DNA of 64,000 bases from Escherichia coli (GTDB lineage Bacteria > Pseudomonadota > Gammaproteobacteria > Enterobacterales > Enterobacteriaceae). Within the stretch, counting starts at the first letter, position 1, and each line of letters begins with the position of its first letter. The position numbers and the translations under genes are program-made. Under the pieces are notes generated by a model. The model was not told the origin of the DNA. It worked only from the letters and a program-made list of their open reading frames with translations, and did no database searches. The stretch lies in assembly GCF_024502345.1 (NCBI RefSeq), contig NZ_JALDNN010000001.1; one strand, written 5' to 3'. Below, in pieces: positions 1 through 20,703 of the stretch.

Positions 1-46
1 AATAAGTGTCCGGATCAGCGTGGAATCCGCACAAATCCTGCATCGG

Positions 47-487
47 TCAGCGTCCCACCTGTGCAGAGGCCCAGCGCACGATGTCCTGCGAGCCCATGGC
101 GCCTGCCTGGCGGGCGATCTCACGTCCGCCCTGGAACAGGGCGAGCGTCGGAATGCTGCGGATACCGAACTGCGCGGCCAGGTGGGGCTCAGCCTCGGTG
201 TTCACCTTTGCCAGCCTGATCCCGGGTTCGAGCTGGCGCGCGGCTTGTTGAAACTGCGGCGCCATCATCTTGCACGGCCCGCACCAGGGCGCCCAGAAAT
301 CGACCAGCAGCGGCAGATCGCTGCGCTCCACGTGGCGCGAGAACGTCGCCGTCGTCAACTCGATGGGCTCGCCGGTGAACAAGGGCTGCTGGCAGCGGCC
401 GCAGTTGGAACGATCCGCGAGCTTGGCGGCCGGCACGCTGTTGATGGACTGGCAATGTGGGCAGACGATGTGGAGTTCATTTTTCAT
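47..487 (-). CDS. trx: Thioredoxin (TrxC-like, N-terminal CxxC...CxxC zinc-finger extension)
   Basis: WCGPC active-site motif; N-terminal CPHC...CGRC pair; 146 aa. Confidence 0.85.
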   Translation of the reverse strand: MKNELHIVCPHCQSINSVPAAKLADRSNCGRCQQPLFTGEPIELTTATFSRHVERSDLPLLVDFWAPWCGPCKMMAPQFQQAARQLEPGIRLAKVNTEAEPHLAAQFGIRSIPTLALFQGGREIARQAGAMGSQDIVRWASAQVGR

Positions 488-1628
488 GGTTCGCTTGCTT
501 GGACTGCGGTGAGGTTGCCTCGCTTCGGATCACCGACATCGCCGACCAATTTACGCCTTTGATCCAATCGTTCCCGTCTTCGCTCACGCCGGCATCTTCC
601 ACGTGAGCCGCAATGAAGGCTTCGGCTTGAATGAGCCCCGCTCTGACAGCATCTATCTTATTAGGCATCCGCAGGATTTCAGCAGCGCAGCCTGCATCCA
701 GCCCATCCACCCGGATAAGCAGAAAAATGCGGCGCCACAAGTGCGGCATACCCTTCATCAGGTCGAATGCAAATGCGAATTCGCTCGATCTGTCACCAAT
801 TTCCTCCTGTTCGGCGATTGCTGCTGGGTCGGGAAGCCGACTATCAGCCATGACGTCGGCCAGGCTGAGTGCGTCATCAGGCTGATAAAACTCGTAGAAC
901 TCTTCCTCTACCATGGCCTCCGCCATGTCCTGCGCATCCGCTTCGACCGGCGCATCCAGCGAAACGGCCTCGCCATATTGCCGGCTGTTTGCCACTTCGC
1001 GATCAATGACGGCAAAAAGATGCTTCAAAAGATCGAGGTAAGCGGCATTTTCTTCTGGAACGGATGTCCATACCGATTCAGCCAGAGCAATCGCTTCGTC
1101 CACCACGTCGTGCAGCGTCGGATAATCGCGAGGCAAATCACCGGCGGCATGCAGATAAGCCAACTCGCGTTGCGCAACGGCCTCAACCTTCGGCAGCAGC
1201 GTCTCGATTATCCCGCGTGCTTGCTGGACGACAGAGGCAGGTTGAGTGTCGATCCGCGCCTTGAGCTCGCGCAAGCGTTCACGACGCGCCTTACGCTTGA
1301 TTTGATCCTGAGCGCTCAGCCGATCAAAGTGCTTCTTGGCCTGCCGGAACAACGCCTGCGCTAGCATGTGCGCGAGAGGCGTCAGATCGTTATGCGATGC
1401 AGTGACGCTGACGATTTTTTTGCCCGGCAAGTGCATGTGGCCACTGGCCGTTAAGCGAGATCCTTTTTTCGCGCGTTCGAGGACGATTTGAAGACGTACC
1501 GAATCTTCGGAGCGCTTTTCGATCAGCGGCTTGAGAGCGGGTTCAACCGCTTTTTCTACAGACATTCGCCAAGGTTCATGAAATTCTTTTTCGACGAGTC
1601 GATAGCTATATTGTATACGCATGCTCAA
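477..1628 (-). CDS. Hypothetical protein with N-terminal ribosome-hibernation-factor (HPF/RaiA)-like fold pattern and long acidic C-terminal extension
   Basis: 383-aa ORF; N-terminal about 100 aa follow the beta-alpha-beta-beta-beta-alpha pattern of HPF/YfiA by eye; acidic low-complexity middle region; no search run. Confidence 0.4.
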   Translation of the reverse strand: MSMRIQYSYRLVEKEFHEPWRMSVEKAVEPALKPLIEKRSEDSVRLQIVLERAKKGSRLTASGHMHLPGKKIVSVTASHNDLTPLAHMLAQALFRQAKKHFDRLSAQDQIKRKARRERLRELKARIDTQPASVVQQARGIIETLLPKVEAVAQRELAYLHAAGDLPRDYPTLHDVVDEAIALAESVWTSVPEENAAYLDLLKHLFAVIDREVANSRQYGEAVSLDAPVEADAQDMAEAMVEEEFYEFYQPDDALSLADVMADSRLPDPAAIAEQEEIGDRSSEFAFAFDLMKGMPHLWRRIFLLIRVDGLDAGCAAEILRMPNKIDAVRAGLIQAEAFIAAHVEDAGVSEDGNDWIKGVNWSAMSVIRSEATSPQSKQANHEK

Positions 1629-1720
1629 GTCCTTTAGGGTTGTCCGCCCAGGTGAGTGGACCCGGGTGATTGGATATGTTGATTTTCAAAGATGATCTTA
1701 CGGTTTGGTTTTTCACGCCC

Positions 1721-2332
1721 TTACCTCTGACGCGCTTTGCGCAAACGCCAACTAAGAAGCAAAAGAGTCATACCGAAGATCGCAGCATGGAAACCCAATA
1801 CCCAGCCCGCGGCCAGAAATGATTCGATCGGGCGGGTAAAAAACATCCATAGGATGATCGCACCGAGGAGCACGGAAAGCAGCCCGCTGAGGGCAAGCCA
1901 GATCTCGCCCTTGATTTCCCGGCGCAGACGAACGGCGGCGGATATCTCCAGCATACCGGTGAAAATTGCCCAGAATGCCACGCTTACCCACAAGAAATAG
2001 GCCAACGCCAAAGTGGCAGCCAGAGGGGCAACTACCACAACGACACCGGTGAGTATGCCGACGATGCCGCTGAACAACAGCCAGCCCCAGCGCTGCTTTT
2101 GCCGCATTTGCCGCACCGCTGCAACCAGGTTGAACGCACCATTGACCAAAGAAAATGCGCCGAACACTATCGTCATGGCGAACAAAGCCGAGTGTGGCAT
2201 CCAGAATGCGAGGACTGCAAAAATCAACGCGAATATGCCGCGCAGCGCAAACAACCACCAATTTTGGGTCAGTGAACACACGGCATCGGCAGGGTTATCC
2301 GCATTCGAATCGGCGATGGTATTTGCATTCAT
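1721..2332 (-). CDS. hdeD: HdeD-family (DUF308) inner-membrane acid-stress protein
   Basis: 203 aa, about six predicted hydrophobic helices, position between yfdX and trx as in LHR. Confidence 0.75.
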   Translation of the reverse strand: MNANTIADSNADNPADAVCSLTQNWWLFALRGIFALIFAVLAFWMPHSALFAMTIVFGAFSLVNGAFNLVAAVRQMRQKQRWGWLLFSGIVGILTGVVVVVAPLAATLALAYFLWVSVAFWAIFTGMLEISAAVRLRREIKGEIWLALSGLLSVLLGAIILWMFFTRPIESFLAAGWVLGFHAAIFGMTLLLLSWRLRKARQR

Positions 2333-2417
2333 GCGATATCTCCTTGATGGATCATGAGATCAGGAAAATCAAGCCTTCATCGCGAAGAGAGGGGCTATTC
2401 GCCCCTCTCTTGCGGTT

Positions 2418-3305
2418 TTAGAACAGCTTTGACAGTCTCGCCTTGATTTCATCGAGCCAGCCTTTTCCGCTCCCGCCTCCGGCCGTCTTTTCCTTGACTT
2501 TCTTGAGTTCAGAGTACAGGGGCTCAAAGTCCTTCTTTTTGCCATAGCCCAGCAGTTCTGCCATTTCCAACTGCTGCCGGGCTTCGTTTAACAAGTCCTG
2601 CAGGCGTTCACCGGACGCCTCGCTGCGCTGGCCATCTTCTGTCAAGGTCTCGGCGCGCTTGACGAGCAGTTTGGCGCGCAGGATGGGCAGCGGGATGACG
2701 CTGAGTGTCTCGACGAGCGTGCCGAGCGCCAACTGCAGCGCGGCCTTGGCCTCTTCGATCTTGCCCTGATCGATCAGCGGCACGACGGATTTCACGGCTG
2801 CCGGGTAAGTCGCCAGAGGGATGTTGGTGACCGCAATCACGATTTCGCTGGCCAGCAATGCCAACACGCGACGAGCGCGTTGCACCTCGCCATGTTTGAG
2901 GGCATCCAGCGCCTCGTCAGTCATCGCCTCAACGGTTTCCGTGTTGGCGAACAAGTCGTGCACGATGGTGCGCACATCAACGGGGGCCAGGGCGAGCGTG
3001 GGTTCGCGTGCAACGATCAGCTCCAGCTTTCCCGTCACTTCGGCCAGCGTTGCCAGTGCTCGCGCGGATTCTTTTTCGTCCAGGGCCGCCAGCGCTGATT
3101 TGGTCAGCGCCAAGGCCGAGACGGCCTCATCGAGGACTTGTTTACGTTTGTCTGCCGCTTGCGAGTCCGTTTCCTTCTGAACCTCAGGCTGTACCTCCGT
3201 GACGACTTCAGGCTTGGGCTCTGGTCTGGCAGGAAGGCTGCTTACCGCGGCCTGTTCGTTCGTGCCTTCGTTGATCGCGTTGGGATTCGATGTTTGCTCA
3301 TTCAT
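2418..3305 (-). CDS. YfdX-family protein (second copy)
   Basis: 295 aa; shares conserved blocks (LELIVAREP..LAPVDV, ASEIVIAVTNIPLATYPAA) with the adjacent paralog. Confidence 0.7.
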   Translation of the reverse strand: MNEQTSNPNAINEGTNEQAAVSSLPARPEPKPEVVTEVQPEVQKETDSQAADKRKQVLDEAVSALALTKSALAALDEKESARALATLAEVTGKLELIVAREPTLALAPVDVRTIVHDLFANTETVEAMTDEALDALKHGEVQRARRVLALLASEIVIAVTNIPLATYPAAVKSVVPLIDQGKIEEAKAALQLALGTLVETLSVIPLPILRAKLLVKRAETLTEDGQRSEASGERLQDLLNEARQQLEMAELLGYGKKKDFEPLYSELKKVKEKTAGGGSGKGWLDEIKARLSKLF

Positions 3306-3407
3306 GGTGATATGCCTCGTATGAGATAGTGAAAATAGGGGAATCTATTGGGGCCGACTGCGAATATCGCGAGACTGACCGATGGAGCAGTCGGCCCCTT
3401 CATCACC

Positions 3408-4337
3408 TCAAAACAGCTTTTGGATGCGCGTCTTCAACTCGTCGAACCATCCATTGCCGCTTTTGCCACCAGCCGACTTTTGCTCAATGGACTTCACCTG
3501 ATCGAAGATGGGTTTGAAGTCCTCCTTCTTGCCATAACCCAGGATTTGCGCCAGCTCGATCTCCGTGCGCACGGACGACAGCAAGGTGCTGAGCTCCTCG
3601 TTCTGCTTGGCATCGCGCTTGTCAGTCTCGGCCAGCTTTTCAGCTTTTGCCATCGCGGCTTCGGCCCGTAGCACGGGCAGAGGGAGTACAACTTGGGTGA
3701 CCACCAGCGTGTTCAGTGCTCGGGCGAGTTCCGCCTTGGCGTTGTCGATCTTGCCGCTGTCGATGAGCCGTGCGGCCGACTTGATCGCTGCCGGGTACGT
3801 TGCCATCGGCAGGTTGTCGGTTTCGATCACGATTTCGCTGGCAAGATTGGCAACAATGGGCCGTGCCTTTTGCACCTCGCCATCATCCAACAACTCCTGA
3901 GACAACTTGACCGCTTTCTTGACCGATTCCACGTCGGCGTGGATGTCATGGGTGATGACGCTTACATCGACGGGCGCCAAAGCAATTTTTGGCTCACGCG
4001 CCAATACCAGTTCCAGCTTTCCGCTGGCCAGTTCCAGCGCAGCGAGCGCCTCCTTGGTCTTCTTTGCATCAAGGAGGATCAATGCCTCATGGGTCTTGGC
4101 CAGCGCAGTGATTGCATCTTGGGCGAGTTCGGCGCGCTTCTTCGCGGCTTCCCGGGCGACCTTGTCATCTACCTGTGGCAGCGCCGCTTTGGATGCGGCA
4201 GAGGGTGCTGCAGCACCTGGGCTAGAACCTGCCGCCGATTGGGCCAGAGCCGGTCCGCTCAGTCCGACGACGACCGCCAGGGCAAGTGCGGAGAAGATGT
4301 ATTGTGGCTGTTTGATATTCATGATGTTGGACTCCAA
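3408..4337 (-). CDS. YfdX-family periplasmic protein (first copy), signal peptide
   Basis: 309 aa; N-terminal signal-peptide-like hydrophobic segment; paralog of 2418-3305. Confidence 0.7.
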   Translation of the reverse strand: MESNIMNIKQPQYIFSALALAVVVGLSGPALAQSAAGSSPGAAAPSAASKAALPQVDDKVAREAAKKRAELAQDAITALAKTHEALILLDAKKTKEALAALELASGKLELVLAREPKIALAPVDVSVITHDIHADVESVKKAVKLSQELLDDGEVQKARPIVANLASEIVIETDNLPMATYPAAIKSAARLIDSGKIDNAKAELARALNTLVVTQVVLPLPVLRAEAAMAKAEKLAETDKRDAKQNEELSTLLSSVRTEIELAQILGYGKKEDFKPIFDQVKSIEQKSAGGKSGNGWFDELKTRIQKLF

Positions 4338-4343
4338 TTGAAG

Positions 4344-4802
4344 TTAATTGACTGAAATTTCAATCTGTTTCGGTTTGGCTTGCTCGGCCTTGACAAGCCG
4401 CACTTCCAGCACGCCGTCTTTCATGGAAGCCGTCACCTTGGTCGGATCAACGTTGTCAGGCAAGACAAAGCTGCGCACAAAGCGGCCATACGCACGTTCG
4501 ATGCGGTGGAACTTCTTGCCCTGCTCCTCTTTTTCCAGTTTGCGCTCGCCGCTGATGGTGAGCACACCGTTTTCCGCGCTGACGCGCACGGCATCCTTGG
4601 GGACCTCCGGCAGATCCAGCTTGAGGAGGAATGCGTTCTCATCCTCGCTGATGTCCACCATTGGTGCCCAGTCCGCCGTGGTCATGGCTTCGTTGCCGGT
4701 ACGGGCGCCCTGTCGCTGGGGTGTCCGTCCCAACATCGTCGCCAGGCGGTTTTGCAATTCATCCAGTTCCCGGAAGGGGTCCCACGGAGTCAATGCAGAC
4801 AT
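4344..4802 (-). CDS. Small heat shock protein, Hsp20/alpha-crystallin family (sHsp-GI)
   Basis: Alpha-crystallin domain (ISEDENAFLLKLDLPEV...GVLTISGER...GVLEVRLVK); start taken at internal Met (track ORF extends to 4865). Confidence 0.8.
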   Translation of the reverse strand: MSALTPWDPFRELDELQNRLATMLGRTPQRQGARTGNEAMTTADWAPMVDISEDENAFLLKLDLPEVPKDAVRVSAENGVLTISGERKLEKEEQGKKFHRIERAYGRFVRSFVLPDNVDPTKVTASMKDGVLEVRLVKAEQAKPKQIEISVN

Positions 4803-4896
4803 ATCGGTTCTCCTTGAACAATGCCGGTGAATTGGATGACGCACCGAACAGAGCCGCCGGCTCACTCTGAATAGCGCCTATTACTTTTCGTTTCTA

Positions 4897-6231
4897 TCAA
4901 GAACAGGCCATGAGCAAGAATAGTCCATGAAGCAATAGCGCATGTCCCATCTCGTGATAGGCCACGGTTTCCCGCTCCTTCGGATTGAGCACACGGTTCT
5001 TCCTTTCCAGGCCGGCCACGATGCGCTCGATGGCGGCGGTGAAGTCTTGCAGCTCCACAGCCTGCGCCTTGCGCCGCGTCGCGTTCAGCGCTGCTTCGTT
5101 CACGAGATTGGCCAGATCAGCGCCGGAAAAGCCGGTGGTCAACGCCGCCACCTGTTCCAGATCTACACCGTGGGCCAGGGTGATCTTCTTGACATGGACC
5201 TTCAGGATATCCAGGCGACCTTTCTTGTCGGGACGGTCCACCAGCACCTGACGGTCGAAGCGACCGGCACGAAGCAAGGCCTGATCGAGGATTTCGGGGC
5301 GGTTGGTGGCGGCGAGGATGATCAGCCCGACCGAGCTGTCGAAGCCATCCATTTCGGTGAGCAACTGGTTCAGCGTCTGCTCACGCTCGTCGTGTCCGCC
5401 GGTCGGTCCTCCGACACCGCGTGCGCGGCCCAAAGCATCCAGCTCATCAATGAAGATGATCGCCGGCGCCTGCCCGCGCGCCTGCTCGAACAGGTCGCGC
5501 ACGCGCGCCGCACCCACGCCGACGAACATCTCGACGAACTCCGAGCCTGAGATGGAAAAGAACGGTACCCCGGCCTCGCCCGCCACGGCCTTGGCCAGCA
5601 GGGTCTTGCCCGTGCCCGGCGGGCCAACCAGCAACACACCTTTCGGGATGCGCGCGCCGAGGCGGCCGTAATCCTGCGGGTTCTTCAGGAAGTCGACGAT
5701 TTCGACCAGCTCGGCCTTGGCCTCATCGACACCCGCGACATCGGCAAAGGTGACGCCGGTGTTCTTCTCCATGAACACCTTGGCGCGGCTCTTGCCGATG
5801 CTCAGGAAGCCGCCCATGCCCTGCTTCTCGGCGAAGCGGCGGAACAGGAAGAACCAGACGCCGAAGAAGGCCACCGCCGGCAGAATCCAGGAGAGCACAT
5901 CACGTAGCCAGGTGCTTTCCACCACCCGCGCGTAGGGCACCTCGTACTTGGACAGCCGCTCGGCCAGGTCGGGTTCGACGCGAGTGGCCACGATGGTGGT
6001 CTTGCCCCGGCTGTCCGGCGATTTCAGGCGCCCGGTGACCGTGCGGTCCGACACCAGCACTTCGGCGACGCGCCCCTCGGCCAGCGCCTTCTCGAATTCG
6101 CTGTAGGGCACGGGCTCGACGGTCTTGGCCGCCTGCCAGTAGTTCTGCAGCGTCAGCAGCAACAGGCCGGCGACGATCCAGTAGCCAATGTTCCATTGAT
6201 CTTTCTTTTCCATGGGCAATGTTCCTCGCAA
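4897..6231 (-). CDS. FtsH-like AAA+ protein, C-terminally truncated (ends at the HEMGH zinc-binding motif; M41 peptidase domain absent)
   Basis: N-terminal TM segment plus AAA module (GPPGTGKT Walker A, DELD Walker B); ORF stops 12 codons after HEMGHA; only 31 bp to next gene; downstream bases AT-richer. Confidence 0.75.
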
Positions 6232-6240
6232 GTCGTGCCG

Positions 6241-7701
6241 CTAGAGAATGGGGGTGAACAGACGGGCCACCCCGTCGCGCAAGCGCATGGCCAGCGGGTG
6301 GGCGCGCAACGCCTTCGCCGATATCTCGCCCGACACATCACGAGCGGCATCAAAAAGGGATGACAGCCGCGTAGACAACGCGGTGTCGTACACCTCCACA
6401 TTGAACTCGAAGTTGAGGCGCAAACTGCGCGCATCCCAATTGGCCGAACCCAGGCAGCACCACGCTCCGTCTACCAGCATCAGCTTGCTGTGGTCGAACG
6501 GGCCAGGCCGTTCGAAGATGCGCACACCGTGCTCCAGCACCTGCCAGTAGTGGGCGCGCGCGGCCCATTGCACCGTGGGATGGTCGCCGTTTGCGGGCGT
6601 CAGCACGTCGATACGCACGCCGCGCAACGCGGCCGTGCTCAGCGCCGCGATCATCGGCTGATCGGGGACGAAGTAAGGTGTCCAGATGCGCACCGAATGC
6701 TTCGCCGCGCTCAAAGCGCCCATGAAGGTCCAGCGCATCCGGTCCAGGGCCTCGTCGGGACCGGCCTCGATGCCGCGCGCCCAACTGGTTCCCGGCTCAT
6801 CAGCCGTTACGGGCGGTTCGCCCCAGAAACCCTCGTTGAGCCGCTCGCCCGTGGTATCGCACCAATCATCGGTGAAGCTCCGCATCAGATGCTCCACCAC
6901 CGGCCCGCGCAGACGAAAGTGCAAATCGTGACAGGCCTGGTCCGGCGCATCGGGCCGCCAGTACGGGCTGAAGATGTTCAATCCGCCGGTGAAACCCGTC
7001 TCGCCATCGATCACCAGCAGCTTGCGGTGATTCCGCAGATGCGCGGCATGCAGGCGCGCGGGAATCAATGTCGGGTTGAACGTCGCCGCCGGAACGCCGG
7101 CGCGCTGCAAGGCGCGGTAGGCGCTGCGGGGCGTCCAGCGGGCATACACGTCGTCGATCAGCACCCGCACTTGCACGCCGCGCTCATGAGCCCGGCGCAG
7201 CGCATCGACGAACTGCGCCCCGATGCCTTGGCTGTCGAAGATGTACGAGGTCAAGGCGACGCTGTACCGCGCCGATTCGATGGCGGCGAGCATGGCCGGG
7301 TAGGCCTGCTCGCCATCGACAAGCGGCTCGATGCGGTTGCCGCCGGTCAGCGACTGGCCGGTGGCGCGTCCCACCAGGTGGGCCAGACCGGCAAGTGGCG
7401 GCGATACAGCCTCGGGTATCGTGGGCGAGAGATCCTGCCGAACAGCAGGATCTGCCCCCGGGAAGAGCCGCCGCGCCCGCCGCTGGTAACGGTTGATGCC
7501 GAACAGCCCATACAGCAGCGAACCGCCCAGCGGCAGCAAGGCGATCAGCAGTACCCACAGCGTGGCCGATCGAGGGTCACGCTTGTAGATGACCGCATGC
7601 CCCGCTGTGGGGATAGCGACCGCCAGCGACACGAGGGTGGCTGCCCATGTCAGCCCATTGGGGTCGGACACGACAGCCTCCCATCGCTCAAGATTCGCCA
7701 T
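6241..7701 (-). CDS. cls: Cardiolipin synthase-like phospholipase D family protein
   Basis: Two HxKxxxxD motifs (HRKLLVID, HSKLMLVD); N-terminal membrane helices; about 487 aa from internal Met (track ORF 6241..7884 overlaps clpK). Confidence 0.8.
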   Translation of the reverse strand: MANLERWEAVVSDPNGLTWAATLVSLAVAIPTAGHAVIYKRDPRSATLWVLLIALLPLGGSLLYGLFGINRYQRRARRLFPGADPAVRQDLSPTIPEAVSPPLAGLAHLVGRATGQSLTGGNRIEPLVDGEQAYPAMLAAIESARYSVALTSYIFDSQGIGAQFVDALRRAHERGVQVRVLIDDVYARWTPRSAYRALQRAGVPAATFNPTLIPARLHAAHLRNHRKLLVIDGETGFTGGLNIFSPYWRPDAPDQACHDLHFRLRGPVVEHLMRSFTDDWCDTTGERLNEGFWGEPPVTADEPGTSWARGIEAGPDEALDRMRWTFMGALSAAKHSVRIWTPYFVPDQPMIAALSTAALRGVRIDVLTPANGDHPTVQWAARAHYWQVLEHGVRIFERPGPFDHSKLMLVDGAWCCLGSANWDARSLRLNFEFNVEVYDTALSTRLSSLFDAARDVSGEISAKALRAHPLAMRLRDGVARLFTPIL

Positions 7702-10537
7702 CCGCTGACTTCTTCTTGCGCGCAGGCTTGCTCGCGTCGCCAGGCGGTGCCTCGGCCACGTCCGCGGCATCGGGCTTTTCAGGCTCAGCCGACTTCGCGG
7801 GTGGCTCCTGGCGCTCGAAGACCACCCGTTCGGCCTTGTCGTCCCAGCGGGCGTTGGCGTGATCACCCTTGCCGATACCGCCACCCAGCATCTCGCGCGC
7901 CAGCGCGGTTTCCAGCTCGCTGCGGATCAGCCGCTTGAGCTCACGCGCGCCGAACTCGGGCTTGTAGCCTTCCTCCGCGAAGTGGTCGATCAAGGTCTGA
8001 TCGAAGGTCAGCGTCACGCCCTGGCTGGCGGCGTTGCGGGCCACACGATCAAGCTGCAGGCCGACGATATGGCGGATTTCCTCCTTGCCCAGCGCATGGA
8101 AGACGATGATCTCGTCGATGCGGTTGATGAACTCGGGGCGGAAGTGTCCGCGCAGCACGTCCATCACCTCGGACTTGGTCTTCTCGTATTCCTCGCCGGC
8201 GGCGCCACCGGCCTTCAGCCGACGCTGGATGATGTCCGAGCCCAGGTTCGAGGTGGCGATGATGATGGTATTGGTGAAATCCACCACCCGGCCCTTGCCG
8301 TCGGTGAGCCGCCCGTCGTCGAACACCTGCAGCAGGATGTTGTAGACGTCGGGGTGCGCTTTTTCGATCTCATCGAGCAGCAACACGCTGTAGGGCTTGC
8401 GACGCACCTTCTCGGTGAGCTGGCCGCCCTCGTCATAGCCCACATAACCCGGAGGCGCGCCCACCAGGCGTGCCACGGCATGGCGTTCCCCGTACTCGGA
8501 CATGTCGATGCGCAGCAGCGCACCTTCATCGCCATAGATGGACTCGGCCAGCGCCTTGGCGAGCTCGGTCTTGCCCACGCCGGTCGGCCCAAGGAACAGG
8601 AAAGTCGCCACCGGCTTGTCGCCTTCGCGCAGGCCCGCGCGCGACAACCGCACGGCATCGGCCACCGCGCGCACCGCTTCGTCCTGGCCCACCAGGCGCT
8701 CATGCAGCCGCTGCTCCAGATGCAGCAGCTTCTCGCGTTCTTCCACCGTCAGCTCGTTGACCGGAATGCCGGTCAGGCGCGAGACGATCTGCGCGACATG
8801 CTCGGCCTTGACTTCGGCGCTGCCCGAGGCGCGCTCGCGTTCCCATTCCTCGACGAGCTGCTTGAGTTCAGTCTCCTTGGCCTCGATGCGCTTGCCCAGC
8901 TCGGCGGCCTTGTCGTACTGCTTGCGCGAGGCCATGTAGTCCTGCTCACGCCGCAACTGGTGCAGTTCGGACTCCAGCTCCTGCACCGCCACCGGGCGAG
9001 CCGTGGCCGACAGCTTCACGCGTGCGGCCGCCTGGTCAAGCAGGTCGATGGCCTTGTCAGGCAAAAAGCGCGCGGTGATGTAGCGGTCCGACAACTCGGC
9101 GGCGGCGATGATCGCATCCTCGGTGATGCTGACCTTGTGGTGCGCCTCGAAGGTGTCGCGCAGGCCGCGCAGGATCATCATGGTCTGCGCTACCGTCGGC
9201 TCGGGCACCATCACCGGCTGGAAACGACGCTCCAGCGCGGCGTCCTTCTCGATGTACTTCTGATACTCGTTGAGCGTGGTGGCGCCGATCAGGTTCAGTT
9301 CGCCGCGCGCCATCATCGGCTTGAACACGTTGGCCACGTCCAGCCCGCCTTCGCCGCCACCCTGGCCTGCACCGACGATGGTGTGCACTTCATCGATGAA
9401 GAGAATCATCTCGCCCTGGTGCTCGGTCACTTCCTTGAGCACCTTCTGCACGCGCTCCTCGAACTCGCCGCGATACTTGGCGCCTGCCACCATGGCGTTG
9501 ATGTTGAGCTCGACCAGACGCTTGTCGCGCAGCGTCTCGGGCACTTCACCGGCGACCATGCGCTGCGCCAGCCCTTCGACAATGGCGGTCTTGCCGACGC
9601 CGGGCTCACCGATCAACACCGGGTTGTTTTTCTTGCGCCGGGCCAGCACCTCGATGGTGGTCTCGATCTCCTGCGCACGGCCGATGACTGGATCGAGTTT
9701 GCCCTCGCGCGCCATCTTGGTGAGGTCGCGCGAGTATTTATCCAGCTCGGGCGTGTTGGTCGGCGTCTCGGCGCGGCCATCCTCGGCCCCTTTGCCGACC
9801 ACCTTGCTTACCTGCTGGCGCAGCGCTTGCGGCGTGAGGCCGTAACGGCGCAGCAGGTTGGCCGCCAAACCTTCGCCTTCCTCAGCGAGCCCGATCAGGA
9901 AATGCTCCGGCCCGACATAAGAGTGGCCGAGTTCGTTGGAGGCCACGAAAGCGCGGCTGAGCGCGTCCTTGACCCGGGGCGACACGCCGACTTCGCCCTC
10001 GAACGGCTTCTCGCCGCGCTTGGCTTCGGATTCGATCTGTCGCTTGAGGTCATCGACCTTGATCTTGAACTGTCCCAGGATGGTCTTCACCACGTCGCTG
10101 TCGGATAGCGCCAGCAGCAGGTGTTCGGTATCGACTTCGGCGCGCCCGAACTCTGCAGCGTGTCGGGCGGCCTCCTGCAATAGGGCCTCGGACTGTTCGC
10201 TGATACGGCTGGCGAGCCCACTGCCGCGACGGCGCGCAGTGCCCGTACCGGCCGGGGCGGGTTCGCCGAACGAGGCATCGACCACCTCGTCGGTATCGGC
10301 CGCCATGGACGGCGAATCGTCACCGATGCGGAAGAAGTCGCTGCCGAGGAAGTCTTCGAACAAGCCGCTGCGCGAGCCAAACAAGGCTTCCAGCGGCGAG
10401 ACGGTGCGCTTTTGCTGGCGCGCCAGTTGGCGATAGTGATCGTCACACAACAGCATGGTGCTGTGGCGACCATTGAGATTGGCTTCCACCCGCACCGTGG
10501 CGGGCTGGCCGCAGACCTGGCATTGTTTTCTGGCCAT
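7688..10537 (-). CDS. clpK: ClpK/ClpG-type Clp AAA+ disaggregase with N-terminal zinc-ribbon-like extension
   Basis: Two AAA modules (GEPGVGKT and GPTGVGKT Walker A), Clp-N region, CQVCGQ...CDDHY N-terminus; AAGGAG RBS 7 nt upstream of chosen ATG; about 949 aa. Confidence 0.9.
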
Positions 10538-10634
10538 GCTCATGCTCCTTGAGAGGACTGATTTGACGAGGCGCCGAAGGTCACGGCGCCTCGCCATTCA
10601 CTTGGTTTTTCTGTAGAGAACAAGCCGATCGGCG

Positions 10635-11204: not shown

Positions 11205-11239
11205 GTCACACCTCCAGAACAAAAATTGAAGACTCTCGC

Positions 11240-11521
11240 TCACTCCGTTTGCCTGCGGCTATGGATAGCGCGCCCAGGCAACACGGGATGTTTCGCTGAC
11301 TTCGGCTGCTCATCTGTACGTATCACCTCCTTCTTTCTGCCTGCTTGGATCTGATCATTGATCCATCGATCGATTTCACTTTGACGAAACCGCCACGTCC
11401 CGCCGACCTTGAAGGCCGGAATCTCCCCGTGCGCGGCGAGCCGGTAGAGCGTCCGCTTGCCGACCTTTAAGTAGGTAGCCAACTCGTCGAGTGTGAAGAT
11501 CGCCTGCTGGCGCGCTGTCAT
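11240..11521 (-). CDS. Small HTH DNA-binding protein (AlpA/excisionase/MerR-like), first gene of the heat-resistance locus
   Basis: Motif LDELATYLKVGKRTLYRLAAHGEIPAFKVGGTWRF typical of HTH_17/excisionase-type regulators; 4-nt overlap with sHsp20 ORF. Confidence 0.6.
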   Translation of the reverse strand: MTARQQAIFTLDELATYLKVGKRTLYRLAAHGEIPAFKVGGTWRFRQSEIDRWINDQIQAGRKKEVIRTDEQPKSAKHPVLPGRAIHSRRQTE

Positions 11522-12028
11522 ACCACCCCCACAAGTTCCGTCGTCACGCGGCCTCGCCTGAGGAAGTTCTTGCAAGACTTTGCAAGATATTGCGCCTAAT
11601 ATGCCAAAAGTCAAGAGTCAACATCCAGCGATCTGCTGGCCGATTGATGTGACTCAAATCTTCAAGGACGGTATGCCAGGGCGGGCCGGTCCGGCGCAGG
11701 GGACGGTGGGTTGATCGGGACCTTGCGGGCGCCGCCCACGGCCGCAGATCAAACACCGATCCTCACGTTGTAACCGAGCGCCCGCAGCCCCTTGCTCGTG
11801 CGCATGTTCCTTGGCGGAAACTCGTCTGGGCGCGCCCAGCCGACGATTTCCCCGAGGCTGCTCAGGCCAATGTGCGGAATTGCCCAGTCGTCGCTGCGGA
11901 TCGCGTTCCAGAGTCGGGCCGAAAAACCTCCGTTGCCCCAGACAACGTAGTTCAACAGTATCCGTCCTGCCAACACACCTTCCCGACACCGCCGCCGAAG
12001 GCCATGGCCCATCAAGCGGATTTTCCAT

Positions 12029-12399
12029 GCCCCCTCAGCGCCGTACCTACAGCAAATCTTTCAAGGCCCAGGTCATTCAGGAGTGTTCTGAACCCGGTGC
12101 CTCCATCGCAAACATCGCCTTGGGCTACAGCCTCAATGCCAACCTCGTCCACAAATGGATTCGGCTGCATACCCAGAAAACCACGGCTATCCAGCCAGCG
12201 TTCATCCCGTTGCCTTCTCAAATGCTCGGCGCGGGATCGCATGCTCAAGTGCGCTGCTGCGATCATGAGTTTGATCCAGTCGGCCCGTAATAATGGGCAC
12301 GATCCGTATGCCTATCTCAAGGATGTGCTGACACGGTTGCCGACGCAGCGGGCGAGTGAGATTGCAGAGCTGCTGCCGCATAGGTGGCATCCGGCATAG
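12029..12399 (+). mobile_element. IS66-family remnant: OrfA-like HTH fragment fused to a TnpC C-terminal fragment (internally deleted)
   Basis: RRTYSKSFKAQVIQE...NANLVHKWIR transposase-HTH pattern; separate frame ends ...GHDPYAYLKDVLTRLPTQRASEIAELLPHRWHPA like the IS66 TnpC C-terminus; central transposase region absent. Confidence 0.6.
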
Positions 12400-12639
12400 T
12401 CGCGCAAGACGGTCTGCCCGCACGCTTACGTTCAACAGCTCAAGCACCGTCCGCCCTTCGCGGGATCGTTGCCGCCAGAGCCACACGCCGAACTTTTCCA
12501 CCTTGTCGTCGCCGGCCTGCGGTCAGTCAGGCAAGCCCAGGTGCTTGTTTTCCTGCTTGATCGCGTGGTCTCGGATCGCGTGCACCCGGGAAACGGCATC
12601 CACGAACTGCCACCATCTCTTAGCTTGGCGGGGTCAAGC

Positions 12640-14497
<1,858 letters not shown>

Positions 14498-14505
<8 letters not shown>

Positions 14506-16000
14506 TCCATCTTCCTATCAATCGAATGAACGCAGTGGTCAGTGGTGCCACCCTGCTTTTTTCCAATCCACAACGCTTTTCCAGCTCCCAGCGCCTAGAC
14601 GTTATGCCTGTCTGTACATCCTTCAGCATCGCTGCAGTCAGGCGACGGATCTGATACTCGCCGACGGACTCGGCATAGCGATCCAGGAAGGTGCAGCAAA
14701 GAGGCAATTGATCGAGACGGTGCTCGACTGATGCCCGATGGGGTAGCTGCTGCAGGAACCAGTTGCGACTCCTGCGCGGAAGGCCCAGGTCTTCTTCGCT
14801 ACCTCTACCAATCCGGATCAGCAGGCGCACCAACCTTATGTCACGCGCTCGCCAGTCGATGTGGCTGTTGTTGCCCTGTCGGCGCTGCCTGACCTGGTTC
14901 GCAACCATCAGCCAGTGTCGGTCATGACGATAGAGCCAGGCGTAACATGCCCCTGCTCCGTCTTGCCTGGCTGCCTTGGCTCCACCGTGATTAGCCAGTG
15001 CTTGCAGCCAAATGGCTCGGTACTGCTGCTTTTGCTCAAACTCAGCAGGGAGCAGCTGCACTGACCGCTCGGAGGCAAGGTCGACCTGGCGAGTCTTCGC
15101 CTCGCTGATCAGCTCGCCAGCATGCTGGCCAGGGCGCAGGCTGGTCCAGACGATCAGATGCTGCAGCGCACTGAATCCCTTGCGATGCTTCCTGAACATC
15201 GCCAACAGCCAAGGTGGAGGCTCTCCGGATGTCAGCAGACCGTTCGCAGCAAGCCAATCCCTTTGATGGGATGCCAGGATCTTCTCCCAGATGACTTCAG
15301 CCCTGACCTGCCGGCCTCGCCTGGCGCCGCACTCTGTAGCCAGGTACCGGTACAGGTTGGTCCAGCGTCCGTAGCCAGGCGATTGCACCTCTTCGAGCGC
15401 CAGCAGCTGCATAGCAGCCTTGGCGAGCCTGATAGCCTCTTCGCCCACGGGACTCACGCGAAGATCACGGGGCAGAAACAGTGGAGAGGCTGTATGAAAC
15501 TCGTGCCGCTGCGCTCGACGGAACGGGATAGGTGAGTTCAGGAGCTGACAGCCATGCTCGGGACAGGCATCTATCCCTTGAATCTGCCAGCTGCGCCGCC
15601 AGTAGGGTTCACCGTAGCGCGCAGCCATATCTTCAAAGCAGATCGGGCAGTAACGCAGCCAATCGGGCCACTTGACCAAGGCCGTCGAGGCCCCAGACAG
15701 ACCAATCGTCGGCCGGTCGGGAGCAAGCATGGCCTGAAAAAGATCGGTACGGCGCTCCGGCGGAATGAAAGGGGCATAGAGCGGGAACAGCGTGTGATTC
15801 AGGATCATGCCTTCCGCATCCAAGCCCGTGTTGTTCGCCAACGCAGTCAGGTGTGTGGGCAGATCGGTGATCGCGGCAACCTTGCTGTCACCGAAAAGCA
15901 TGTGCAGCAAGGTCTTGTGGCTGCCTATCCCCAGATGTACCCGGCACCGGGCAATACCGCTGTAAAGCAGTTCGTCCGGGTAGAGCCTGGGGAAGTACAT
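14498..16000 (-). CDS. tnsD: TnsD/TniQ-family target-site selection protein
   Basis: 500 aa; N-terminal TniQ-like region (YPDELLYSGIARC) and CPICFED...CPEHGC zinc-finger motif. Confidence 0.75.
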
Positions 16001-16001
16001 G

Positions 16002-17612
16002 TCAGCTCGCTCTCAGCAGAGGCCGTAGATCGAGGATCAAGCCAGCCTGCTTGAATCTGTCATAGGCCTCGCTTTCAGGCCCATCGGCATAACGTCGGCG
16101 CAGATCCTCCTCGGATAGGCACCCCCACTCCGTCCGCTTAACTCTGGAAATGCCGGGCCTCTTGGGAGCGTCCTGCGCGAGGTAGGCCGTGGCCTTGTGA
16201 ATCAGGGCCGCCAGCGGGATGTCCGGATTCTCCGCCAACAATTCATCGGCCATGGGAATGGCGATGTCCCTCGGGATTTCCATACCTTCGAGCAGGGCGG
16301 CCAACCGCTTTGCCTTGTCATCAGCCGGAGGGGCCGGTGGTTTAGGTTGGGGGACGCTATCCAGAGAGCGAGTCAGGGTCAGCAACCGTCCCTCGATCTC
16401 TGGCATCAGCAGGTCGTCATATTTGGCGATCAGCTCGGGCCTACCGCTCCGCAAGGCCGCCAGCATCGGATGGACCGGTTTGAACTCGTCCTCGAAAACC
16501 CTGCGCAGCAACAGCGGCTTAATGCACTCGACACCTGTCACTATCGCCCGGATCTGCGCCAGCGCGAACAGCTTGATGACGATGTCCATGACCCCTTGGG
16601 TGAGGTCGTACATCGTAGCCTCCAGTTCATCATCCAGCGGCGCCGCATTTCGCAGCCACTGATACTTCCAAAGCCGCTTCAACAGACGCTTCCAATGCTC
16701 GTCCCGAGGCAACCTATCCCAGCGGATGCTGCCCAACCCGGAGACCCGCCGAGCAGCCCGGAACGTGCGCTGGAAGAACTTGCTGGCCCGGTGGGTGCCG
16801 ACCTGAATGATCGGAACACCGATGGTGTTCACCAGCGACACGAAGAAATTGTGCATTTTTTCGGCACCACCGGAGCGTGCCTCGTTGAGGTTCTGAACCT
16901 CGTCGATGATCAGCACTCCGAGCGTGTGCAGATTGGCCAGCTGGCACATGGATGCCAGCAGACGTTTGGTACCCAGCTTCTTGCGTCCGTGGCTACGGCT
17001 GTAGTGGGTACCCAGGATCTTGTCTACTTCGTTGAAGAAGCTCAGGCACAGCTCATCCAAGTCACCGTCAATTGGGCAGTCGATCTTCAGGTAGACCAGT
17101 TGGGTGATGTCGTAATCAGGGTGATGGAGAGCTTGGGGGTACATGCCCAGAATCCGCTCCAGCGTGCGCGTCTTGCCGCAACCGGAGCAGCCGAACAGCG
17201 ACAGGCTGTTGGCCGTAGAGGAGACACTCTGGTACACCGCCGCATCCAGATCCTCCTCCTCGACACGGCGATAGCCATTCTGCAGGTGCGCATACCAGGC
17301 ACCGCTGGCCGGATTCCGACCGATGTACCCTTGACGGATCATCAGGCTGATCTTGCTCTCCAGCTCCAAGTGATGGCTCAGCGGCTGGAAGAAGCCGTGC
17401 AACAGGCGGGCAATCGCATGTGCCCTGAGCCGACCATCCAGAAGCGCCTCCTGCGGCTCGAAACCGGGAAGCTGCTGCAATAGATCGACCACCTCCTGCA
17501 GATCAGGAATCGGAGGCAATGCGCTGATGAGCGGATTGTCCTGATACTCGGGAAGCTGCTGCTCCTGGTAACGCGCCAGGGGAATGACTCCGCGCTGGAA
17601 TTCTTCAGTCAT
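16002..17612 (-). CDS. tnsC: TnsC AAA+ transposition regulator
   Basis: 536 aa; Walker A GCSGCGKT; Walker B-like IIDEVQN; placed between tnsB and tnsD. Confidence 0.8.
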   Translation of the reverse strand: MTEEFQRGVIPLARYQEQQLPEYQDNPLISALPPIPDLQEVVDLLQQLPGFEPQEALLDGRLRAHAIARLLHGFFQPLSHHLELESKISLMIRQGYIGRNPASGAWYAHLQNGYRRVEEEDLDAAVYQSVSSTANSLSLFGCSGCGKTRTLERILGMYPQALHHPDYDITQLVYLKIDCPIDGDLDELCLSFFNEVDKILGTHYSRSHGRKKLGTKRLLASMCQLANLHTLGVLIIDEVQNLNEARSGGAEKMHNFFVSLVNTIGVPIIQVGTHRASKFFQRTFRAARRVSGLGSIRWDRLPRDEHWKRLLKRLWKYQWLRNAAPLDDELEATMYDLTQGVMDIVIKLFALAQIRAIVTGVECIKPLLLRRVFEDEFKPVHPMLAALRSGRPELIAKYDDLLMPEIEGRLLTLTRSLDSVPQPKPPAPPADDKAKRLAALLEGMEIPRDIAIPMADELLAENPDIPLAALIHKATAYLAQDAPKRPGISRVKRTEWGCLSEEDLRRRYADGPESEAYDRFKQAGLILDLRPLLRAS

Positions 17613-19692
17613 CCTCTTCCTCCTTGAATATCAGGTCACTGAGATCTGGGAAGGCATAATCTTCCTGCTTCTCGCCCCGCAGTGGGATCACCTCGGCTGG
17701 CTTTTCCTGCTGTGCTTTATCCGGTTTGAATGCTGTTTTCTGGCGTTCCTGGCGCTTTTCCTGCTGCTTGTTCTCGCGGATCTGGGTTCCCAGATCCTTC
17801 GTGGTCATACCCGTTTTGAGCGGACTGGCATCCTCTGCCTGGGCAACGATGGACTCGATCTGCTTCAGAAGATTGCCTCTCTCTACCAAAGCTTCCGCCG
17901 CCGCGTTGGTATCGCTACGCCGTTCCTCTCTGGACAGCAGCCAGACATCCCAGAAGGTCATCCCCCTGAAGCGTCGACTGCGGTCGGCAAGATCGCAAAC
18001 CCAGTAGTCCTTGAGACTATTGGACGGCCGCAGGTAGATGTGGTCGGCGCTACGCGGATCGTATGCGACCGTTACCCCTGTCGGCCGGCGCCCCTGGCCT
18101 CGGTGAAACCAACCCTCCCTGATTGCTTCCTGGCAGGTGTAGAAGCAGCCGAACAGTCTGATTCCCAGCTCCGAAACCGTGGCCGACTCATGGGGCAAGA
18201 GATTTATCCGCACCAGCTCCTCGGGCGCAGTACGTAACCGGCCGGTCAAGTTGGCCAAGCCCCAGTTCCACAGCATGACCGGGATGGCTGGCAGATCGCC
18301 CGGCATACCAGAGGTTCTGTCGTATTTGCTCAAGGTATGAAAGTTGTTGTGGTAGAGGATGCCGGCAATGATGATCTGGGTGAACTCGGGCAAGGTCAGA
18401 CTGGCATCAAGTCTGTAGTCGTGGCCACCCCGCTTCCGGCTGGTGGTGTCCTCGACCACACCGCTGGCATAGGGCTTGAAACGCTCCTGCACCGTCCGGA
18501 AATAACGCTCGACGATCCCCTTGGCATCTCCTCGCCTGGCCGGTGCATTCTCGATGCGAACGCCGAAGGCTTGGGAAAATGCTTCCACCTTGGTGCCATT
18601 CAGTTCGCCCTTATCGGCCAGCACCACATCCGGCAAGCCTTTGACCGGCCAGTCGCTGGCATCGATCTCCACGCTATACTGGCGGCAATACTCAACCTTG
18701 TCGGCGACCGTGTTGGCCAATGCCACCATGGCACTGACCCAGGAAGGTCCCTCGAATCCGACGTACATACCAACGACCATGCGGCTGAACACGTCGATCA
18801 CCATGTAAACGACAGGCCTGCCGACGATAAGGCTGCGATCATGTTCTGAAACCAGATAGATATCGGCGATGGTGGCATCGATCTGGTAGCGGTATCCTGG
18901 CCCCAGTGCCTCGGTCGTCGATGTACTGCTGAGCGGTCGGAAGTCCTTGGCAAAATCCACTGCGGACACCCTGCATGGCAAGGTGTCGGTGAAGTGATAT
19001 TCGCGCCCATAGAAGTAACGGAACTGCCCCAATGTAGGCAGTTCGGAGGTCGGCAGCTCCGTCAGAACAGCACGGAGCAGATTCAGCCCGGCGGCGTAGG
19101 CATCAGGAATGGACGGATGTTTTTCCTTGAGCAAACGTTCCTCGATGACCCGGCGAAAAATGCGCTCGATGTCCGGCGTGACATTGCTCCCTTTCCCCTC
19201 CATCACCACTCTGGGCCTGCCCAGCTTGGCCTGGTTCGGCTTTCTGCGCTTGCCACGGGCGCCCGAGTTGACATAGTCCGGCAAGAGGGCATTCCTGCAC
19301 ATGCCTCGCTGCCAGTAGCGCCTCAGTAACCTATACACCGTCTGATTGGTGACACCATGGCGCTCCATGATGCCTCTGACAATGAGCCCTCTGGGGCGCC
19401 GCACGAAAAGCTGGGGGTTGTGCACAAAATCCGCCAGCATTCCCCAAGCTTCATCACGCTTCTGCTGATCAAGGGAACCTTCCTCAACCTCCCGTAGGAC
19501 TGTTTCCTCGAAGGGATCGGCAATGCTCTCCAGCTCCCGCTCCATGATCAGACGCTCCAGCTCTACAATCGATATCGGTTCGGGCAACGCCGTGTCCGAA
19601 TCGATATCGATCCAGATTGCCTGCTCGGTACCGGACCAAAGCAGGCGCTTTCGCAGTTCCCCCATCCGGAACACCTGATTAACGGGCAACAC
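17605..19692 (-). CDS. tnsB: TnsB DDE transposase (retroviral-integrase-like core)
   Basis: 695 aa; N-terminal HTH, central rve-like core (YQIDATIADIY...VIDVFSRM...), similar in size to Tn7 TnsB. Confidence 0.85.
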   Translation of the reverse strand: MLPVNQVFRMGELRKRLLWSGTEQAIWIDIDSDTALPEPISIVELERLIMERELESIADPFEETVLREVEEGSLDQQKRDEAWGMLADFVHNPQLFVRRPRGLIVRGIMERHGVTNQTVYRLLRRYWQRGMCRNALLPDYVNSGARGKRRKPNQAKLGRPRVVMEGKGSNVTPDIERIFRRVIEERLLKEKHPSIPDAYAAGLNLLRAVLTELPTSELPTLGQFRYFYGREYHFTDTLPCRVSAVDFAKDFRPLSSTSTTEALGPGYRYQIDATIADIYLVSEHDRSLIVGRPVVYMVIDVFSRMVVGMYVGFEGPSWVSAMVALANTVADKVEYCRQYSVEIDASDWPVKGLPDVVLADKGELNGTKVEAFSQAFGVRIENAPARRGDAKGIVERYFRTVQERFKPYASGVVEDTTSRKRGGHDYRLDASLTLPEFTQIIIAGILYHNNFHTLSKYDRTSGMPGDLPAIPVMLWNWGLANLTGRLRTAPEELVRINLLPHESATVSELGIRLFGCFYTCQEAIREGWFHRGQGRRPTGVTVAYDPRSADHIYLRPSNSLKDYWVCDLADRSRRFRGMTFWDVWLLSREERRSDTNAAAEALVERGNLLKQIESIVAQAEDASPLKTGMTTKDLGTQIRENKQQEKRQERQKTAFKPDKAQQEKPAEVIPLRGEKQEDYAFPDLSDLIFKEEEDD

Positions 19693-20506
19693 TGCTCAGC
19701 TCCTGATGCATTTGATGAGAGTTGGCAACCAGGTCTTTCGGCTTCAGCTCCCGGTAAGGAGTGTCAAGATCGAAAAGGAAACAGTGCCGGGCCAGCAACT
19801 GGCGTAGCCAATAGAGCGCCTGACCGGCCTCCAGCTGGCCGGAGGTATCCAGTCCTTGGGCAATAGCGGTCAGCTTCCGGTCTGGGTGACGCTGAAACTC
19901 GAGCAGAAACAGCTGCTGGTAATGGGCGAGATCGTCCTGAGCGATGTCGCCTTCAGCATGGGCAGGATAGAGCCATTGGATATTGGCAAATGCCACCTTG
20001 GATACCTCGCGCTCCGTAACGATGACCCAGGGAATACCTTTTTCCTGCCAGTAGCGCCTTTCAAGCTCAAGCCTCTCGATAACTTCAGGCTTCTGCAGGT
20101 CGGTACTGTACTTGGCCTGAATCGCGATGCTCGGGCGCTGAGGATCTTCGAAATCCACCAGAAAGTCGCTGGTCAGTACCTGCGGGGTACCCTTGTAACA
20201 ACCGTGGGGCAGGCCAAGCTCCTCGGCGATGCGCACCGTATCTTCGACCCGCATCGGAAACTGTTCACGGATATCGGTGACATGGGGAGACCGATCCAAG
20301 GTCAGGAAGATGGCCAGTTCAAGATCGGATAGAAGATGGTGTAAACGCCGGGTCTTGCTGCCAGGCAGGCGGTGGGAGCGACCCAGCGAGGACACGTCCC
20401 TTGTGTAGATGAACGGCTTGTAGTCTGATCCCTGGCCTTGACCACGCCCGTCCTTGAGCCTTCTATCGATCTGGGCCTGGGTCAGCCCCTTGAATGTTCC
20501 AGACAT
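19679..20506 (-). CDS. tnsA: TnsA endonuclease
   Basis: 275 aa; blocks shared with Tn7 TnsA as I recall it (QIxRRxKxGRGQG, GRSHR, HHLLSDLELAxFL, DIREQFP, LELERRYWQ). Confidence 0.9.
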   Translation of the reverse strand: MSGTFKGLTQAQIDRRLKDGRGQGQGSDYKPFIYTRDVSSLGRSHRLPGSKTRRLHHLLSDLELAIFLTLDRSPHVTDIREQFPMRVEDTVRIAEELGLPHGCYKGTPQVLTSDFLVDFEDPQRPSIAIQAKYSTDLQKPEVIERLELERRYWQEKGIPWVIVTEREVSKVAFANIQWLYPAHAEGDIAQDDLAHYQQLFLLEFQRHPDRKLTAIAQGLDTSGQLEAGQALYWLRQLLARHCFLFDLDTPYRELKPKDLVANSHQMHQELSSVAR

Positions 20507-20565
20507 GAGAAAGCCTGCCCCCGCTGTGTCGATGACCTCAACATAGCGGATGCAGGCTCAGAATG

Positions 20566-20626
20566 AAACTTTATTTATACGGATGATACTTTATTTATAC
20601 GGATGAACCTTTATTTGCATCCCACA
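20566..20626. repeat. Tn7-like right-end terminal repeats (putative TnsB binding sites) ending in terminal 5'-TGTGGG on the complementary strand
   Basis: Three tandem about 20-bp repeats: ACTTTATTTATACGGATGA (x2) then CCTTTATTTGCATCCCACA; about 120 bp upstream of tnsA start. Confidence 0.75.
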
Positions 20627-20703
20627 CATTTTACTTAAGGCATAAGCGGTAGAGTTGAGTGATAACCCTTCCATAATTTCATTTTCTAACACACTAATTT
20701 AAT

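Follow-up and report, generated by a model that had tools for sequence, protein, structure and literature searches.

The heat-resistance locus (LHR), also known as the transmissible stress-tolerance locus (tLST), enables Escherichia coli, Klebsiella, Cronobacter and Pseudomonas to survive heat of the pasteurisation type, pressure and chlorine, and is a concern for food safety and hospital hygiene. The copy considered here lies in a 64,000-nucleotide stretch of E. coli DNA (contig NZ_JALDNN010000001.1; "the window" denotes this whole stretch), whose positions 1-20626 very probably (probability about 0.9) represent the right-hand two thirds of a cut-and-paste transposon of the Tn7 family, with a backbone of the Tn6411 family and an LHR2-type locus as cargo, the whole element measuring about 28-29 kb with an IS21 insertion (IS, insertion sequence) counted in. 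The LHR2/tLST of E. coli FAM21805 (Boll et al., 2017, PMC5383660) and LHR1 of E. coli AW1.7 (Mercer et al., 2015, PMC4563881) have the same gene set and order (HTH-sHsp20-clpK...hsp20-GI-yfdX1-yfdX2-hdeD-orf11-trx-kefB-psiE-htpX-degP, where HTH is a helix-turn-helix gene), and the cls and diguanylate cyclase genes typical of LHR2 (PMC5383660) are both present in the window-type element. They differ in that the two papers call the locus "flanked by mobile elements" and name no transposon (PMC5383660, PMC4563881), a wording general in the field, where complete-genome data have been held too scarce for systematic analysis (PMC8290217).

A transposon does enter the picture in Pseudomonas aeruginosa CF39S, whose tdcA gene and LHR-syntenic genes are "encoded on a Tn7-like transposon" (Almblad et al., 2021, PMC8012707), a statement that a 2026 review takes up again; two papers of 2021 (Almblad et al.; Kamal et al.) had already made mention of LHR genes lying on a Tn7-like transposon or next to one. 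Compared by description only, the CF39S cargo, with its GGDEF diguanylate cyclase, resembles that of the window-type full element, which has a GGDEF gene between kefB and psiE; the differences are that the paper leaves ends, duplications and att site undefined and that its host is P. aeruginosa, not E. coli (PMC8012707). A literature search combining tLST, LHR or clpK with Tn7-like, glmS, attTn7, TnsD or TnsE returned passing mentions only, and no paper defining ends, duplications, att-site use or E. coli copies, while the main text of Benler et al. (2021) on Tn7 cargo leaves heat and Clp genes unmentioned. Nothing in the mechanism goes beyond ordinary Tn7 biology, and the association has been published in outline, so that this is not a new kind of system. 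What is added is the vehicle itself, now defined by its exact ends, the 5-bp duplications, the empty site, insertion at attTn7 and a route onto plasmids, and the known repertoire of Tn7-like cargo is extended by a large stress-tolerance island. Status as transposon cargo accounts for a locus that jumps among chromosomes, plasmids and genera and for strains with two copies, one chromosomal and one on a plasmid; it provides a testable mechanism for LHR spread across genera and, through junction PCR markers at glmS and at the transposon ends, a means of surveillance of practical value in tracking heat- and chlorine-tolerant Enterobacteriaceae.

Ends, insertion site and tns genes

The outer limit of the element opposite the tns genes was read in a complete E. 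coli genome, NZ_LR536430.1, which matches the window at 99.8%; because the match runs on through the right flank, its element occupies the window's own site. There the left end, an inverted TGTGGGATGCAAATAAAGT, lies about 520 bp past degP, the last LHR gene, CATTT stands directly before the left end and directly after the right end, and the element is 29,079 bp long. A joined-flank query found the site uninterrupted in five E. coli genomes (99.3-99.4%); the empty junction of E. coli PEC1009 reads ...GGAAGGC-CATTT-TACTTAAGG..., with a single CATTT, and this empty site has neither tns genes nor LHR. Since the left end lies beyond degP, CATTT is found on both sides and the empty site holds it once, the tns genes and the heat locus bear the classic signature of having moved jointly in one transposition event. 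Compositionally, GC content is 55-68% over 1-20 kb and 45-50% just past 20626. By these alignments, the window copy is a non-att insertion with a CATTT duplication in a CP4-57-like genomic island.

Within the window, the right-hand terminus at 20626 reads ...CCTTTATTTGCATCCCACA (ending ...CCCACA), followed at once by CATTT, and this boundary is common to more than 30 E. coli records. Three tandem 20-bp repeats at 20563-20622 constitute TnsB-type sites at 20-bp spacing. In the window the 19-mer terminal motif has a single copy, against 0.02 expected by chance, and the TnsB-site core AAATAAAGWWTCATCC has three, all within 20561-20616, against 0.10 expected; none of 100 shuffles reached three. 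No left-end-like motif was found in 1-20560, either as the 19-mer at up to three mismatches or as the TnsB-site core at up to two, and, as the TnsB-site motif does not recur elsewhere in the 64 kb, tnsE and the heat locus have no left end between them. NZ_LR536430.1 and E. coli G3/10, both outside the window, are the genomes in which the left end was read, and in the retrieved stretch of the former its TnsB-type sites (at 4566, ~4712 and 4767) are dispersed over about 230 bp. The architecture is therefore that of Tn7-like ends: the tns operon beside the right end, TGT...ACA termini, and sites packed on the right and dispersed on the left.

Only minus-strand genes are found in 1-20626. The five tns products were identified by Pfam and by sequence searches against PDB chains (Table 1), NCBIfam giving zero matches for these proteins. 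Residues E63, D114, Q130 and K132 are conserved in TnsA, as are the DDE residues D273, D361 and E396 in TnsB (Tn7 numbering), and the five open reading frames are intact and full length, with copies at other sites matching them at 100% identity. Given the close homology to Tn7, TnsA and TnsB would together cut both strands at the two TGT...ACA ends, and TnsC would link this transposase to a target picked by a selector protein: TnsD would choose attTn7, 20 bp downstream of glmS and with the right end facing glmS, and TnsE replicating or conjugating DNA, leading to non-att sites and plasmids. Either way, insertion would duplicate 5 bp of target. Ends, duplications, empty site, att-site usage and intact catalytic residues are all directly observed, and we infer that the element is active in transposition.

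An earlier note, made from the window's sequence, had described tnsA-B-C-D and a fifth gene in Tn7 order behind a right end with a TGTGGG terminus and tandem TnsB-site-like repeats. All five genes are indeed Tn7 homologues, the gene in the TnsE position being a genuine TnsE by its TnsE_C and 5D16 matches, and the repeats resolve into the three 20-bp sites. It had seen no inverted end motif between that gene and the heat locus, and none exists at 11.6-12.9 kb or elsewhere in the window. Its central proposal, that the heat locus is cargo of a Tn7-like transposon, came with the suggestion that an inverted left end beyond the locus, CATTT on both sides and an empty site in related strains be sought; the first two are present in NZ_LR536430.1, and PEC1009 and others supply the last, with a single CATTT. 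The further idea of a concrete mobilisation vehicle is borne out by whole tns-plus-LHR units that have the same ends and other 5-bp duplications at other sites and in other genera. The note had also allowed that LHR copies elsewhere without tns linkage, coupled with a different defined boundary here, would count against it, and such tns-less copies do occur (LHR1 type, with IS5/IS256 borders); to that extent the objection holds, while cargo status at the present site stands.

Target sites and relatives of the element

A left end beyond degP together with a matching 5-bp duplication was found in six independent insertions (CATTT, CCAGT, AGCCC, ACATG, GGGCC, TGGGC). Besides the window's site, these are inside a UvrD-helicase gene of E. 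coli G3/10 (CCAGT), in the backbone of the IncFII plasmid pMEI282 (ACATG), and downstream of glmS in E. coli TC24 (AGCCC), Pantoea sp. GD03673 (TGGGC) and Pantoea agglomerans (GGGCC, placed by flank homology to the GD03673 site). In TC24 the duplication lies exactly 20 bp from the glmS stop codon and the right end points towards glmS, the geometry described for Tn7 at attTn7 (PMC2918618). Scanning one genome per species with the 18-bp terminus yielded 42 stretches, among which tnsABCDE sets 83-100% identical to the window's occur in Pseudomonas, Pantoea, Halioglobus and other metagenome-assembled genomes (MAGs); in Solimonas and several others only tnsA falls inside the retrieved stretch. The right end lies 25-30 bp past glmS (...NLAKSVTVE*) at eight of the ten right ends examined (Pseudomonas, Pantoea and Pseudomonadales MAG loci), and in five other species the left end has LHR 3' genes next to it. 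Of the 42 stretches, about a dozen (e.g., Limosilactobacillus, Chlorobiaceae, Neisseria, Pseudoalteromonas) were set aside as chance or unrelated matches with no family end beyond the 18-mer and no tns genes. Because right ends sit just past glmS in E. coli TC24 and in the Pseudomonas, Pantoea and MAG loci, the element uses attTn7 as Tn7 does, with TnsD directing insertion to glmS, and the non-att insertions, the window's included, were presumably reached via TnsE. The idea that E. coli copies avoid attTn7, suggested by the first two sites, both non-att, was dropped once TC24 and its relatives turned up at glmS.

Likeness to Tn7 extends from the tnsABCDE order by the right end, the TGT...ACA termini, the packed right-end and dispersed left-end sites and the 5-bp duplication to an insertion point 20 bp downstream of glmS, the right end pointing at that gene, a second, non-att pathway and conserved catalytic residues. 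Even so, the window's proteins are distant homologues of those of Tn7, the ends have other sequences, there are three TnsB sites at the right end where Tn7 has four, and a stress-tolerance island takes the place of the class 2 integron as cargo. Much closer is Acinetobacter baumannii pE47_001, listed as Tn6411-like (Zhan, 2018, PMC11232968), with 88.5% nucleotide identity over the whole 7.7-kb tns region, a terminal 18 bp and tandem 20-bp sites identical to the window's, and amino-acid identities of 91% for TnsA, 92% for TnsB, 95% for TnsC, 83% for TnsD and 85% for TnsE, the last two being the most diverged proteins. By this sequence comparison, made with pE47_001 standing in for Tn6411 (CP024477), the window's backbone is assigned to the Tn6411 family. 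Tn6411-type elements and the window element both insert at glmS or in plasmids (P. aeruginosa chromosome; Acinetobacter plasmids), but their cargoes differ: an aacC2-tmrB remnant and the In992 integron with blaIMP-1 in Tn6411, other genes in pE47, and the LHR/tLST in the window element.

Some further loci of the family are of interest in their own right. The G3/10 copy splits its UvrD-helicase gene (4617-5552 and 34614-35120 of the retrieved stretch) beside an ATP-dependent nuclease gene; the pair resembles the Gabija defence system and was probably inactivated by the insertion. Non-coding mini-elements of 327-328 bp, made only of Tn6411-family left and right ends, are present in Pseudomonas alcaligenes (retrieved stretches L021:6614-6941 and L022:3549-3876) and Pseudomonas oleovorans (L031:662-988, L032:4188-4515 and L034:8834-9160), at different sites and, in four of the five copies, with perfect 5-bp duplications (CCCGC, GAAGT, ACCGC, TGCGG); they look like non-autonomous derivatives of the miniature inverted-repeat transposable element (MITE) type, mobilised in trans. 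One of them (L021) lies behind a 198-aa fragment of the glmS 3' end, not a full glmS, which may be a duplicated or decoy att site. In Pseudomonas sp. NW5 (retrieved stretch ~1720-1760) two family ends stand back to back, 5 bp apart (...GCATCCCACA-CACGG-TGTGGGATGAAAATAAAG...), which suggests successive insertions at one spot despite target immunity of the Tn7 type.

Distribution and competing histories

Among 5,426 complete E. coli genomes, the tns module was detected in 37 (coverage at least 80% in 29) and a joint tns-plus-LHR query was covered to at least 80% in 30, while matches to the LHR part came from 156 genomes, with coverage of 80% or more in 122, and were mostly at about 86% identity, that is, classic LHR1. 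At least nine E. coli replicons share a tns module that is 100.0% identical over 7744 bp, and the flanks read among them are of at least three kinds (CATTT, CCAGT, GGTGT), a pattern that would support recent spread. Plasmids account for 30 of the 50 E. coli places of the module, and PLSDB holds 111 plasmid records, 40 of them conjugative. Since most E. coli LHR copies, of the LHR1 type, are without tns genes, the transposon is one well-defined LHR vehicle and not the sole context. In E. coli NCTC122, for instance, LHR1 matches only the element's interior (5001-25551 of the NZ_LR536430.1 stretch, IS debris included) and has an IS5 fragment and IS256 as its borders, tns genes and transposon ends being absent. 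Such loci are either decayed derivatives or independent contexts. Many Klebsiella plasmids keep just a 1,076-bp tnsE remnant; in the one plasmid whose context was examined, K. pneumoniae pKP18-2050-1, it lies beside a shortened clpK locus (HTH-hsp20-clpK...GGDEF-psiE-htpX), with two IS66 copies around, next to a pco/sil metal-resistance cluster.

Several facts weigh against reading the window copy and its relatives as complete, self-moving units. The window copy stops in an IS21 repeat short of the left end, so that its completeness is taken from near-identical genomes, and its assignment to TnsE has a single basis, namely that the site is not attTn7. Sister copies at the very same site have a broken tnsA or a tns module short of about 20%. 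One right junction (GGTGT) is common to the S43 chromosome and plasmid pKL53-L, which combines an LHR1-like and an LHR2-like half as a mosaic; in both the left end was lost to IS5/IS110, and the chromosome of E. coli 2273-PO3 has the same right junction with non-matching flanks (TGTAC/GGTGT), which suggests recombination between resident copies; this strain also has a plasmid copy of the element. With a GGTGT junction common to these three, two of them without a left end, it can be ruled out that every tns-linked copy is an independent transposition.

How far do these facts favour other explanations? Were the tns genes and the heat locus mere neighbours, a left end would lie between tnsE and the locus, leaving the latter outside the transposon. 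The IS debris at ~11.65-12.88 kb that separates the two, and the many E. coli LHR copies without tns genes, would be in keeping with this, but the absence of terminal and TnsB-site motifs from 1-20560, the six insertions whose left end lies past degP with a matching duplication, and an empty site lacking both parts refute it, and we give it next to no credence. It is also improbable that the window element is a stranded remnant, deprived of its left end or of transposition by IS21-mediated rearrangement or decay, with a locus now dependent for its movement on its host island, on plasmids or on homologous recombination. A window that starts within an IS21 terminal repeat, the damaged sister copies, the lineages with a left end lost to IS5/IS110 or with recombinant flanks, and the tnsE remnants of Klebsiella plasmids all speak for decay of this kind; yet G3/10 and NZ_LR536430.1 carry the IS21 as a simple insertion with the left end intact, and the five full-length tns reading frames of the window are the same, base for base, as those at other sites.

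More room must be left for the possibility, though we would not bet on it, that the Tn7-like backbone was gained recently, through insertion of an IS-bounded LHR into a Tn6411-family transposon, the older main vehicles having been IS composites and plasmids. The same IS debris precedes the tns-less, ~86% identical LHR1, Tn6411 relatives carry wholly different cargo, and 80% or more of the LHR is present in some 122 E. coli genomes, tns and LHR together in only about 30. This proposal concerns history only and does not contradict cargo status here, and the tnsE remnants by clpK on Klebsiella plasmids, along with LHR-bearing glmS copies in Pseudomonas and Pantoea, indicate a wide and older association. 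Carried to its limit, that association would make the Tn6411-family transposon the ancestral and still active vehicle of enterobacterial LHR, with both the tns-less LHR1 islands in E. coli and the plasmid-borne clpK regions in Klebsiella as its decayed derivatives and with cross-genus spread in two steps, by TnsE onto a conjugative plasmid and then by TnsD into glmS of a new host; this scenario is tentative and, as a whole, less likely than not. For the window copy we keep to the reading of an LHR2-type locus as cargo of a Tn7-family transposon.

Cargo genes and genomic surroundings

Table 1. Features of the element and its right border, ordered from right to left along the window
Feature	Coordinates	Strand	Basis or remark
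Right copy of 5-bp target-site duplication, CATTT	20627-20631		same pentamer at left end in NZ_LR536430.1; single in PEC1009 empty site
Right end	20561-20626	-	terminal 5'-TGTGGGATGCAAATAAAGG inward from 20626; TnsB-type sites 20561-20576, 20581-20596, 20601-20616
tnsA, endonuclease subunit of heteromeric transposase	19679-20506	-	Pfam Tn7_TnsA-like_N + C; Tn7 TnsA 1F1Z E 2e-60
tnsB, DDE transposase subunit	17605-19692	-	Pfam Mu-transpos_C; Tn7 TnsB 7PIK E 2e-187, full length
tnsC, AAA+ regulator	16002-17612	-	Pfam AAA_22 + TniB; Tn7 TnsC 7MBW E 1e-122
tnsD, TniQ-family selector for attTn7 at glmS	14498-16000	-	Pfam TniQ + TnsD; Tn7 TnsD 8GLU E 1e-46
tnsE, selector of non-att pathway	12883-14505	-	Pfam TnsE_C 8.7e-44; Tn7 TnsE C-terminal domain 5D16 E 1.7e-10
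IS debris: IS66-family transposase fragments and ATP-binding protein gene fragment	11650-12882		IS66 match, annotations, homology
First locus gene, excisionase/MerR-type HTH DNA-binding protein	11240-11614	-	NCBIfam TIGR01764 3.8e-15
sHsp20, small heat-shock protein	10635-11243	-	profile match; annotation
clpK (ClpG-GI), disaggregase, key heat-resistance determinant	7688-10597	-	NCBIfam heat_AAA_ClpK 2152.9 bits vs cutoff 1900
Cardiolipin-synthase (cls)/phospholipase-D-like gene, as in LHR2-type loci	6241-7884	-	profile match; annotations
ftsH-like, truncated, without C-terminal protease part	4897-6231	-	FtsH_fam positions 8-432 of 598; annotated partial in near-identical genomes
hsp20-GI	4344-4865	-	open reading frame; Hsp20 match; RefSeq names in near-identical genomes
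yfdX1	3408-4337	-	open reading frame; RefSeq names in near-identical genomes
yfdX2	2418-3305	-	open reading frame; RefSeq names in near-identical genomes
hdeD-GI	1721-2332	-	open reading frame; RefSeq names in near-identical genomes
orf11	477-1628	-	open reading frame; RefSeq names in near-identical genomes
trx-GI	47-487	-	open reading frame; thioredoxin match; RefSeq names in near-identical genomes
Terminal repeat of IS21-family element between trx and kefB	1-27		comparison with G3/10 and NZ_LR536430.1

The cargo (Table 1) has the LHR/tLST core gene set in its conserved order and with its high GC content, the kefB-degP part lying outside the window. Tolerance of heat, pressure or chlorine is known for homologous loci (PMC4563881, PMC5383660) and is predicted from homology for this copy. 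The clpK/sHsp/yfdX/hdeD/trx locus that the earlier note had called GC-rich and co-oriented is just that, all its genes being on the minus strand and in the order given. Where the note saw only IS debris between tnsE and the locus, debris is indeed present, as it is upstream of tns-less LHR1, but the HTH gene that follows belongs to the locus. That gene also scores 78.5 bits on the NCBIfam MADS1 anti-phage HTH model, just below the cutoff of 80, and matches the generic excisionase-type HTH domain as well. The note had the locus running off the window; kefB to degP do lie beyond it, but the locus does not simply run off, because the outermost bases are already an IS21-family terminal repeat. Past the IS21, by the order in G3/10 and NZ_LR536430.1, come kefB, a GGDEF/tdcA-like gene, psiE, htpX and degP and then the left end. 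Both genomes have the window's IS21 insertion, and the start of the window within its repeat may be an assembly break at a repeated IS. The exact 40-mer from the window start is absent from the G3/10 and NZ_LR536430.1 stretches because of small differences within the IS21 terminal repeat.

On the other side of the right end, from 20627 to about 40000, homology to NZ_LR536430.1 identifies the CP4-57-like island that hosts the transposon. On one side of the insertion point lies a fragment of a YagK/YfjJ-domain gene and on the other a small hypothetical gene, and its neighbours in the island include a type III restriction-modification system and a pair formed by a large helicase and a DUF4391 protein.

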